From positions 1,088,001-1,152,000 of the forward strand of contig OZ244048.1 in NCBI GenBank assembly GCA_965215265.1: a stretch of DNA of 64,000 nucleotides, read 5' to 3'. The stretch is from Candidatus Poribacteria bacterium (GTDB lineage: Bacteria; Poribacteria; WGA-4E; WGA-3G). Below, in pieces: positions 36,001 through 39,000 of this stretch (its first letter is position 1; each line of letters starts with the position of its first letter). A program made the position numbers.

Positions 36001-39000
36001 CATTCGTTGACGTGCTGTCTAAGGTATCTACGTCGGGTTGGCAGGATAGGTATTCTTTGTCTCTCCTTTCAGGAGAGACAAGTGGCGAGATAGGTATCTT
36101 TCTCTGTCCTGAAGGACAGAGAAGATTACCTTTTACTCGCCACCCACTGGGATTACCTTTTACCTGCCAATCTATAGAGCCGTGGGTGTAACGTGTCTTA
36201 AAACGTTCATCCGCTCGCTGCACGCCTTGCAATGCCTCTTGCACACGCGATGCCGGCGTTTCTGTTTTCTCAGCAGTCATGGCTAAAAAGAATAACCCGA
36301 CTGGCGAAAATGCAGAAAACCGTCCGCCAACCCCTTCTGGCACCGGAAGGAGGGTGCCGCTGTAGAAGGGAGATTGCTGATGAAGTTGGAACAGCGCACT
36401 TTTGTCGGTTAACCCTGTCGTTGCCAAAACCTGATGCTCCCACTTGTAACCGTCCAGGTTCCGGACGTGCTTTTGGAGCATATCGCGGATAATCATCAAC
36501 GTTGCTATTGTCTCACCTGTTCTCCCAGATTTGCTAATCACGTTGAAGAGCGTTTTGTGGAGAAGGTTTTGGCTTTTAAGCATTTCCAAGAGAGCGGTAA
36601 GTCGCCTCGGGTCGAATGTGTCGCCTGTAAAATAGACTTCCGGGGCACCTCCGCGGGCTTCAACTGACAGCCTATTGTGATAAGGATGGTTGAAGCATTC
36701 ATGAAAAACTCTTGCACTCAAATCAGAGCCGCCAATGCCAATCGTGACGAGAACTGCAAATTCCTGACGGGCACGCGTTGCCACATCGATCACCTGGGCG
36801 ATGTGTTCCGTTTGCAAATGGCTACGAGTCCACGCCCGGAGATTTCGCTCTAATATCGAGAGTGGTGCGGATACCTCTTGTAGGAAGAGTGCATAAATGT
36901 CTGCCAACCGCACGTCAATATTCTGTTGAGACGTTCTGTCCGAATCTGTTTCAACAGGCAAAAAATTAATGTCAAAGGTTAACGCGGATCGATGCGAAAG
37001 ACGGACGCTTTCTGGTGTCATCTCGGTTAAATTCTCCCATATTTATCCACAAGCCGAACGATATCATCCTCAGCAAAATGCCCGAACGAAATTTCGAGGA
37101 CCCGATAATCTTTGGCTTCACCAATCAATTGATGTTTGGCACCTTGTGGGATGAAGACAGGTTCCATCGGCTGCGGGCGTTGGAGTTCGCCTTCGATTTT
37201 TAAGCACGCGCCGTCATCAAGCGGTATCCACAGTTCACTTCGGTGGTGATGATACTGATAACTTACCTGTTCGCCCGCCCGAATTTCTAAAATTTTAACA
37301 GTGACAGGTTGATTGAGGACATATTGAATAAAGCTGCCCCACGGCTTCTCGGTTCTCGCTATCTCCATCACAGGATTTGGATTTGTTGTATCGTTGCAAG
37401 AAATCGTTTTTTCTTTCATGTGTCCATTAAATTATGGGTAAGGCGTGTTTTCCGGAGATGGCAAAGGAGTAGATGCCATTAGTATTACGCCTTGCCGTTT
37501 TACATACAGAAACATATCCTTCCTCTACCTTCAAAAACACTCCAGTTTTGTTCACAGAAGCGAGGTGCAGGAATTCCTGACAAATTCGAAAATCTTCTAA
37601 CAATTTACCATATAAATGCGGTACAAGTCAAGCGAAAAAATTGTGAAGTGTAGCTGCCCAACTATTTTGGGAATCATCTTCCGGATTCGCATTGCTTTTC
37701 CAATTGTAGGCATCCGGCACTTACCTTAATGTATCAGTATCTGCCGATAGTACCTTATTTTTTAGTAAATACTCTCGAAAATGAGTTGACATCTTGTCGG
37801 AAATCTGATAAGTTAAATCACAATATAGACTTTCAGACATGACCCTAAATAATAGGATACGAGTTTTGTTGATGGAAACGTTAAGGTGCTTTTGGGTTAA
37901 AGTATGGAAAAATTAATCTCAAACCTGATAGAAAATGGAATTGTGGAAGGTGTTTTCCCGGGGGCTGTAGCACATATCCTGACATCGGATACAACGTTAT
38001 ACCATGAAGCGTTCGGATATCGCCAGTTAACACCGAAGCGGCACCCGATGCATAGGACAACCCTGTTTGACCTGGCTTCTCTCACGAAGCCGATTGTCAC
38101 CGCAACGCTCTGCATGCAATTGGTTGAAAAGCATGTTGTTAATCTTGATACCGCAGCTCAGGTATATCTTCCGTCCTTCAGACATGCAGATGTCACGCTC
38201 CGTCACCTTCTTACGCATACGTCAGGGCTTCCGGCGTGGTGTGCTGTTTATTTAGAGACGGATTCCCCGGAAGATGTCATCTCGTACCTCGGAGACCTTC
38301 CGCTCAAATCACTACCCGGGGAGAAGGCTGTTTATAGCTGCTTGGGCTATATTGTCCTGGGTAAACTTATTGCGAGTGTCACCGGTGTACCCCTAGATAT
38401 TATAACACAAGAACGCCTTTTTACCGTCCTGAATATGGATAAAACCTGCTTTAATCCGCCACTCCCATGGCACGGGAACTGTGCCGCAACCGAAGATTCC
38501 AACAGTTTTGAACGCCGCAAAGTAGGCTACCAACGTTACGATTGGCGTGAAGGTGTCATTATTGGCGAAGTGCATGATGAAAACGCCCATTATCTCTGCG
38601 GAGTTTCCGGGAACGCGGGTCTCTTTTCTACATCAGCCGAACTTGGCACGTTTTGTAGAATGCTCATGTCCAACGGTGGAGATATTTTAACAGCCGAGAG
38701 TATTCGCGAGATACAAACCCGCTATCCAGCGCAAGGTGAACCGCGAAGCGTCGGTTGGATTGTCTTGGAAGACGGTTCGCTCTATCATACCGGATTCACT
38801 GGCACTTCTATCCGTATCTGTCTAAAAAGGAAGCTCGCGGCAATTCTCCTCACTAATCGCGTGCATCCGGATGCCGATAGAACCGGCATTATCGCATTTC
38901 GCAAGACGTTTCATGACATCGTTTTCGCAGATTAAAGCGATAAAGACTATGAATTAAGGAATTCACCCCGCAGGGCGGGGAGAACTTCTTAAAAGCACGG

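Follow-up and report, generated by a model that had tools for sequence, protein, structure and literature searches.

Rickettsia palindromic elements (RPEs) are about 150 bp long and nearly half of them lie within open reading frames (Ogata et al. 2000, as presented in PMC10969869); in-frame insertions of both MITEs and RPEs are described in the same review. For Poribacteria, the titles and abstract openings of the papers listed in literature searches yielded no description of mobile dispersed repeats, whether palindromic repeats or MITEs. Here we describe a family of short hairpin elements from this phylum, two members of which lie nested, in frame, within a gene for glucose-6-phosphate isomerase (PGI).

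The genome, that of a Candidatus Poribacteria sponge symbiont, is a 95%-complete single contig of 4.83 Mb with 48% GC, and the window denotes the 64,000-nucleotide stretch of it that was analyzed (G000:C1:1088001-1152000). Positions are those of the window unless the contig is named. The locus comprises the following features:

35402..37021, minus strand: pgi-like CDS encoding a short bacterial-type glucose-6-phosphate isomerase of 539 aa (Pfam PGI, PDB matches, AF2 fold).
36038..36082, plus strand: left part of the outer element, 45 nt, with the left arm and the central stem-loop, ending in ...GGAGAGACAAG; codons L314-Q328; nhmmer model positions 5-48.
36083..36151, plus strand: inner element, 69 nt, a TGGCGAG...CTCGCCA hairpin with the tail CCCACTGGG; codons P291-P313; nhmmer 36080-36152, score 69.8.
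36152..36178, plus strand: right part of the outer element, 27 nt, with the right arm ATTACCTTTTACCTGCCA and the tail ATCTATAGA; codons S282-N290.

Joined together, the two outer pieces make up 72 nt and match an uninterrupted copy elsewhere in the same genome (G000:C1:4125648-4125719) at 72 of 72 positions. This intact copy serves as an empty site within the same genome and proves that the inner element has inserted into the outer element, precisely between ...GACAAG and ATTACC... and with a duplication of at most 1 nt. The element ends are uncertain by 1 nt, the G preceding TGGC being possibly element-derived. The inner copy finds its best match elsewhere in the genome at 94% identity over 69 nt. 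The whole insert of 141 nt is read on the minus strand as 47 codons (S282-Q328), two Trp and two Cys among them, with no stops in the 539-aa open reading frame 35402-37021. A sequence-only reading of this locus had reported two nested palindromes of 72 and 69 bp that add 47 stop-free codons; its coordinates proved exact, as did the peptide it quoted. Folding of the insert as RNA gives a three-way nested hairpin with -72.3 kcal/mol, compared with -33.9 +/- 4.1 kcal/mol for 200 shuffled sequences (z -9.3).

The same reading had proposed an alignment of orthologues as a check, the opposing outcome being a segment carried by all of them. The segment is absent from 21 of 21 strong orthologues in the genomes of relatives: their alignments to the query stop at residues ~274-281 and pick up again at 332-341. 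For G001, the closed genome from the same genus, nothing separates the two HSPs in the subject DNA. Each of the 19 orthologues that were aligned is gapped at the insert, which is also missing from each of 119 database homologues. The distance between the invariant residues F274 and Y343 is 68 aa here versus 7-16 in the 119 homologues (11 in 98 of them), and the linker delimited by these residues is the only one of variable length in the homologue alignment. No relative in the protein database exceeds 71% identity, which leaves no intermediate insertion states among them, and at the DNA level the alignment with G001 is too diverged around the insert to give an exact empty site. Five extra residues, PDVDT, adjoin the insert in the PGI of this genome.

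The product of pgi is a diverged short-type PGI. It scores 34.6 bits with the Pfam PGI family (PF00342), above the cut-off of 22; the matches to the NCBIfam PGI models stay below the cut-offs of those models. Sequence matches in the PDB (2q8n, 3ifs and 1b0z; Thermotoga 2q8n, and Bacillus and Thermus PGIs) fall into two stretches, one on either side of the insert (query residues 88-245 and 344-534). Given an alignment of 120 sequences, AF2 produced a model with a pTM of 0.81, which retrieves 2q8n in Foldseek (E 9.6e-23, TMt 0.80). Residues 282-337, situated between helices 256-275 and 341-356, have pLDDT values below 50, too low for a confident loop geometry, and the insert is modelled as a disordered loop in the inter-helix linker; outside this segment the model agrees with the PGI fold. 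Invariant columns over the 120 sequences are retained on both sides, as had been claimed from the sequence for the catalytic motifs: G232-S236 (GGRFS) upstream, and E382, S383 and H403 downstream, which we take to be the catalytic residues of PGI. Apart from the host pgi, PF00342 matches nothing in the genome, and a search there for a cupin-type GPI was negative.

The two palindromes are members of one dispersed hairpin family, in keeping with their earlier description as mobile elements. A profile built from 53 copies produced 297 nhmmer matches in the whole genome, representing ~211 distinct loci that merge to 180 composite intervals. The elements are ~61-72 nt long, with a terminal stem of 8 bp, a stem-loop inside it and, at the 3' end, a tail of 9 nt (CCCAYTGGG or ATCTATAGA). 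Among the 136 copies with both termini located, the architecture is that of a single base (G in 106 copies and T in 21), a hairpin core and the 9-nt tail; cores of 56 and 62 nt are the commonest (26 copies each), followed by those of 55, 61, 60 and 51 nt. As to the tail, 53 copies have CCCACTGGG, 21 have CCCATTGGG and 31 have either ATCTATAGA or TCTATAGAT. Of 112 copies, 84 have fully complementary terminal 7-mers, with five covarying pair types, compared with a mean of 48 and a maximum of 60 for shuffled partners. The pair TGGCAGG/CCTGCCA accounts for 60 copies, TGGCGAG/CTCGCCA for 15 and TTGCGAG/CTCGCAA for 5, with other types besides. Compensatory variation extends to the central stems, and would fit either recognition of the hairpin or symmetric recognition of the ends. 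RNAalifold gave no consensus structure for 106 copies aligned with MAFFT, the alignment being disrupted by indels in the central loop, and arm pairs were counted directly instead.

The family is strongly depleted within genes: 18 of the 211 copies (~8%) lie deep in ORFs, defined as open frames of 150 aa or more that extend for 40 aa or more to each side of the copy, compared with 65% of 2000 random sites. Within the window, the following copies and fragments were recorded apart from those in genes:

966..1036, plus strand: further family copy outside long open frames (nhmmer, window-restricted census).
10405-10491, 15319-15389, 24670-24742, 26897-26975, 30643-30744 and 54146-54219: other copies outside long open frames (nhmmer).
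4129-4243: family fragments (nhmmer, window-restricted census).

The stretch is wholly or partly present in 17 of 21 listed sequencing runs, from eight studies and with no RNA run among those listed, and we compared four runs (X5-X8), one per study. The insert is not an assembly artefact: the flank/outer, outer/inner and inner/outer junctions recur in Logan contigs from the four studies. Left-flank contigs cover 35700-36066, reaching 29 nt into the outer element, in X5, X6 and X8, and end at 36037 in X7; right-flank contigs begin at 36118, 36140 or 36163, with records spanning 36140-36500 in X5 and X8. A 99-nt contig of X6 (record 11) covers 36053-36151 with no differences; it can be assigned to the pgi locus, since no other inner copy exceeds 94% identity. 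The left contig of X8, which runs into the element, carries three flank SNPs, all three of them synonymous third-position changes. Slightly diverged strains thus appear to share the double insert with only silent change in the flank, in a small sample where minor alleles are possible. Neither an empty joint (36037|36179) nor a single-copy joint (36082|36152 with pgi flanks) occurs in the X5-X8 contigs, a type of record that drops rare variants. Contig joints that skip the 69 nt were considered as a single-copy allele and rejected, since their shorter side measures just 19-28 nt and is explicable by uninterrupted copies elsewhere.

The inner copy in pgi occupies the recurrent nesting site of the family. 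Fifteen left halves break at model position 47/48, and in 13 of them, the pgi pair included, a new copy in the same orientation directly adjoins the break. These recurrences bear on the order of events. The sequence-only reading held that successive insertions create new protein loops; a new loop is supported by the nested, in-frame insert without counterpart in orthologues, while the order may have been different, as neither a single-copy nor an empty allele appears in proteins or contigs. A composite of 141 nt, already nested, could have transposed into pgi as a unit: the 13 pairs with identical site and orientation indicate that movable composites exist, and the lack of a single-copy pgi allele among database proteins and contigs is what such an arrival would leave. 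Yet this particular combination of outer and inner element is found at no other locus, the element hosting the best other inner copy (94%) differs in its left-flank bases, and the outer subtype is known uninterrupted at 100% identity. We therefore regard arrival in one step as unlikely, though still deserving of consideration, and favor two insertions in succession.

The distribution of copies, the identity between them and their nesting suggest that the elements are, or have been, mobile. The family is absent from all 30 genomes of relatives, including the closed same-genus genome. An exact 20-mer of the family had no match in a genome contig collection or in viral contigs, nor did an exact 25-mer in metagenome contigs, searches that would miss diverged copies; blastn against a plasmid collection gave no match either. 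The search for a transposase was limited to three classes. Y1 transposases (PF01797, which would include RAYTs) had no match in the genome at E<=0.01, with the control search positive in 6 of 14 control genomes, and neither the IS110 DEDD transposase (PF01548) nor TnpB (PF07282) was matched in the genome. No target-site duplication (TSD) is present at the inner/outer junction when judged against the intact 72-nt copy. We found no autonomous partner with the same ends and no pairs of left and right halves carrying cargo; the orphan-end pairs in the genome flank ordinary housekeeping genes, with no transposases. Movement would presumably proceed through a hairpin-recognizing mechanism that leaves no TSD.

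Beyond pgi, in-frame copies are present in five other genes, two of which lie in the window:

33300..33370, plus strand: copy in a histidine-kinase gene (32876-35236, minus strand), nhmmer 33300-33365, adding 23 aa (IGDGGEKVFFSVLEDRERKPNPA) within the HATPase_c region.
51834..51906, plus strand: copy in an FtsX-like permease (open frame 49504-52848, minus strand; nhmmer, Pfam FtsX), with a net gain of ~23 aa.

The histidine kinase, whose gene neighbors pgi, has Pfam HAMP, HisKA and HATPase_c domains, and its 23-aa segment, past residue 622, is missing in G001. The permease measures 1115 aa against 1090 in G001, with the extra segments at residues ~309-341. In a SpoIIE/GAF phosphatase the in-frame copy corresponds to a clean 23-aa gap in the G001 orthologue; a TPR protein contains an in-frame copy of ~30 aa and a BamA-like protein 18 in-frame aa from a degenerate copy, both missing in G001. 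The in-frame copies are read in at least three combinations of frame and orientation, and similar peptides recur in several proteins. With in-frame copies in five more genes and none in the same-genus genome, the analogy to Rickettsia palindromic elements that had been drawn from the pgi insert fits.

At 18 loci one strand is open for 80 codons or more to either side of the copy, and in 10 of them the copy is in frame and free of stops. Six of the other eight flank pairs were examined, four on both flanks and two on one. All four of the former lie between ORFs with different Pfam domains, which marks them as separate genes and not one split gene; of the latter, one follows the ORF of ribosomal protein L2 (with both L2 domains) and one is upstream of an aldo/keto reductase domain. 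Consistent retention of frame, free of stops, is what selection on translated inserts would predict. It also bears on the idea that the hairpin never reaches the protein, being cut out of the mRNA or skipped over during translation, as is said of the byp elements of yeast mitochondria. The very stable RNA fold of the insert (-72.3 kcal/mol, z -9.3) is compatible with this idea. Neither removal nor bypass, however, would need the frame to be kept, and 10 out of 10 copies whose frame stays open for 80 codons or more to each side keep it without stops, the four non-open loci with both flanks examined being boundaries between genes; copies are moreover read in at least three combinations of frame and orientation, and the hairpin has no family match in Rfam (the best hit, at 23.9 bits, falls short of its gathering score of 100). 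An untranslated hairpin is accordingly the least probable of the explanations considered, to the point of being hardly credible, in line with the earlier judgement that removal at the RNA level is the less likely alternative. The loop is probably translated.

The condition of the gene itself has to be weighed as well. Compared with G001, pgi has dN/dS values of 0.145/1.106 (~0.13), which amount to 0.169/1.019 in the upstream half and 0.105/1.194 in the downstream half. On these rates long-standing decay of pgi may be taken as excluded, the ratio being no guide to the date of insertion. A recently inactivated pseudogene, with an open frame still awaiting decay, is a different matter: the outer copy has a counterpart of identical sequence elsewhere in the genome and is thus possibly young, a very recent loss of function leaves no trace in dN/dS, and 47 aa with two Trp and two Cys placed between the SIS domains could disturb folding. 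Such inactivation nevertheless seems improbable, because it would affect the only PGI-family gene of a genome with no cupin-type GPI, and would have left the frame intact over 539 codons. The insert is, moreover, common to strains of four studies, whose flank differences are synonymous in three out of three cases; five other genes, the one for the BamA-like protein included, tolerate in-frame copies; and the insertion falls in the sole length-variable linker of the alignment. The enzyme bearing the loop probably remains active.

A translated loop could also have been exapted, that is, retained for a new property of PGI such as interaction, localization or regulation. Its fixation in the contigs of four studies and the repeated production of similar peptides by the family in several proteins would be in keeping with this. 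The loop is, however, modelled as disordered, its homologues are confined to the element family, and its occurrence in one species only leaves no sequence conservation to assess; we consider exaptation very unlikely, on a par with recent inactivation.

We therefore favor the following explanation, and assign it a probability of roughly 80%: a species-specific, non-autonomous hairpin family has inserted, nested copy included, into a probably tolerant linker of pgi and produces a translated, disordered loop of 47 residues, with the SIS domains and the catalytic residues intact. A hairpin element would have entered the length-variable linker of the only pgi of the genome, and a second copy is lodged within the first at the site where members of the family prefer to self-insert, with matching orientation and no target duplication. 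The 141 nt, having no stop, would be translated as a disordered loop between two helices, and both SIS domains, together with the catalytic residues, would be left as they were. Selection would act as a filter: most copies lie in intergenic DNA, and inside genes only frame-preserving, stop-free copies in tolerant loops would persist.

A broader interpretation can be offered as a speculation that we ourselves regard as doubtful. The family would be an orphan mobile hairpin, TSD-less, orientation-specific and self-targeting, whose mover would fall outside the Y1, IS110 and TnpB classes; it would have undergone a burst in one species of Poribacteria and would systematically build translated loops in core proteins (PGI, the BamA-like protein, the histidine kinase and the FtsX-like permease). 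In a sister genus, the pgi of G010 carries an unrelated 156-nt repeat inserted at a different position, and a 26-aa form occurs in P0021; repeat-driven creation of loops would then be general in these symbionts.

With these elements, selfish DNA within protein-coding genes, a phenomenon for which Rickettsia is the best-known case, reaches into an uncultivated phylum of sponge symbionts. The doubly nested insert of 47 residues in a single-copy glycolytic enzyme amounts to a natural experiment, for which a same-genus genome free of the family is at hand. The combination of no recognizable transposase with a fixed self-insertion site offers a handle on how such elements move. Hairpins of this kind also break short-read assemblies and lengthen predicted proteins, which makes them relevant to the annotation of MAGs.

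Several known systems share some of these properties. Like REPINs as they are characterized in PMC3116915, the elements are inverted-doublet hairpins with compensatory changes, mostly extragenic and species-specific, forming clusters through insertion into or beside existing copies. They differ from the REPIN/RAYT system of that account in the lack of a Y1_Tnp/RAYT match in the genome, in their in-frame intragenic copies and in a 9-nt 3' tail for which it gives no REPIN counterpart; membership among REPINs fails because no RAYT was detected. With the ERIC and RU MITEs, as outlined by Delihas (2007; PMC2759123) and in PMC10969869, they share small size, non-autonomy, terminal inverted repeats and translational fusions. 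Unlike classical MITEs, the poribacterial family has neither a TSD nor an autonomous parent with the same ends, and for want of a TSD and a parent IS it does not belong among them. Palindrome-associated elements derived from IS200/IS605 insert without TSD, in a specific orientation and beside a preferred sequence. The present family is likewise TSD-less and orientation-specific, and recognition of the hairpin would be plausible; in contrast to IS200/IS605, TnpA (PF01797) and TnpB (PF07282) are undetectable in the poribacterial genome.

A parallel is also offered by the coding palindromes in the mitochondria of Nematomorpha, which in the account of PMC6649704 are long inverted repeats embedded in protein-coding genes and translated there, as is probable here; the nematomorph palindromes of that account are organellar and far larger. 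The closest likeness is to RPEs in the description given by PMC10969869: both are dispersed palindromes of a host-associated bacterium, lie in frame in unrelated housekeeping genes, at positions that for the present elements are probably compatible with the fold, and have no known transposase. Compared with the RPEs described there, the present elements have a poribacterial host, unrelated to Rickettsia, are only 61-72 nt long, lie deep in long ORFs in ~8% of cases and nest at a fixed internal site, the likeness being one of description. The hairpins of this sponge symbiont are thus a real and new family, of an already known, RPE-like kind.

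Composite elements in G000, the source genome, are not all built alike. In some of them, such as G000:C1:1501654-1501751, the inner copy follows the host element's ...GAGATAGGT, and the host element lacks its central stem-loop. Left halves of elements are also found broken at positions 43 (n=7) and 54 (n=7) of the nhmmer profile. The placement of these inner copies and the breaks at 43 and 54 therefore show that there are nesting sites besides model position 48. Copies with the ATCTATAGA(T) tail display a further peculiarity: they are often surrounded by a second recurrent motif, GTGTAAATCTC ... 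GTCGGAG, as in the following cases.

G000:C1:4125720-4125745: ATCTATAGA-tail copy with such flanks
1813227: the same
1632895: the same

This arrangement suggests that the subfamily is hosted either by another repeat family or by a preferred target.

The genome of G000 measures 4.83 Mb, versus approximately 4.0 Mb in the element-free congener G001; the approximately 211 elements total about 15 kb and account for little of this size gap. Their effect on short-read assembly is seen at window positions 36024-36185 in four sequencing runs from separate studies (X5-X8): the summed contig depth is about 10-50 in the flanks and climbs to 1100-6500 within the elements. Element borders coincide with the break points of unitigs in these runs, and short-read assemblies of this organism are fragmented by the element repeats.

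The pgi gene lies between a histidine kinase gene downstream and, directly upstream on the same strand, a cupin gene.

37027-37419, minus strand: cupin protein, 130 aa (Pfam MannoseP_isomer C-terminal, 58 bits)

Immediately adjacent to the pgi insert, positions 36023-36037 comprise five codons (PDVDT) absent from G001. They contain AGGTATCT, which is found in the inner element too (repeat D3), and may represent a remnant of an older element copy or a coincidence.

The pgi orthologue of the sister-genus genome G010 carries an in-frame insert of its own, independent of that in G000.

L004:1033-1188 (G010:C29:37894-38049): insert of 156 nt (52 aa), following the site that corresponds to residue 439 in G000

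This insert is a dispersed repeat within G010, with 187 candidates and full-length copies of 96, 94 and 85% identity; its architecture consists of direct, not inverted, repeats. Among database homologues, P0021 shows a form of 26 aa at this same site, whereas the insert in P0010 and P0013 is 22 aa long and follows residue 30.
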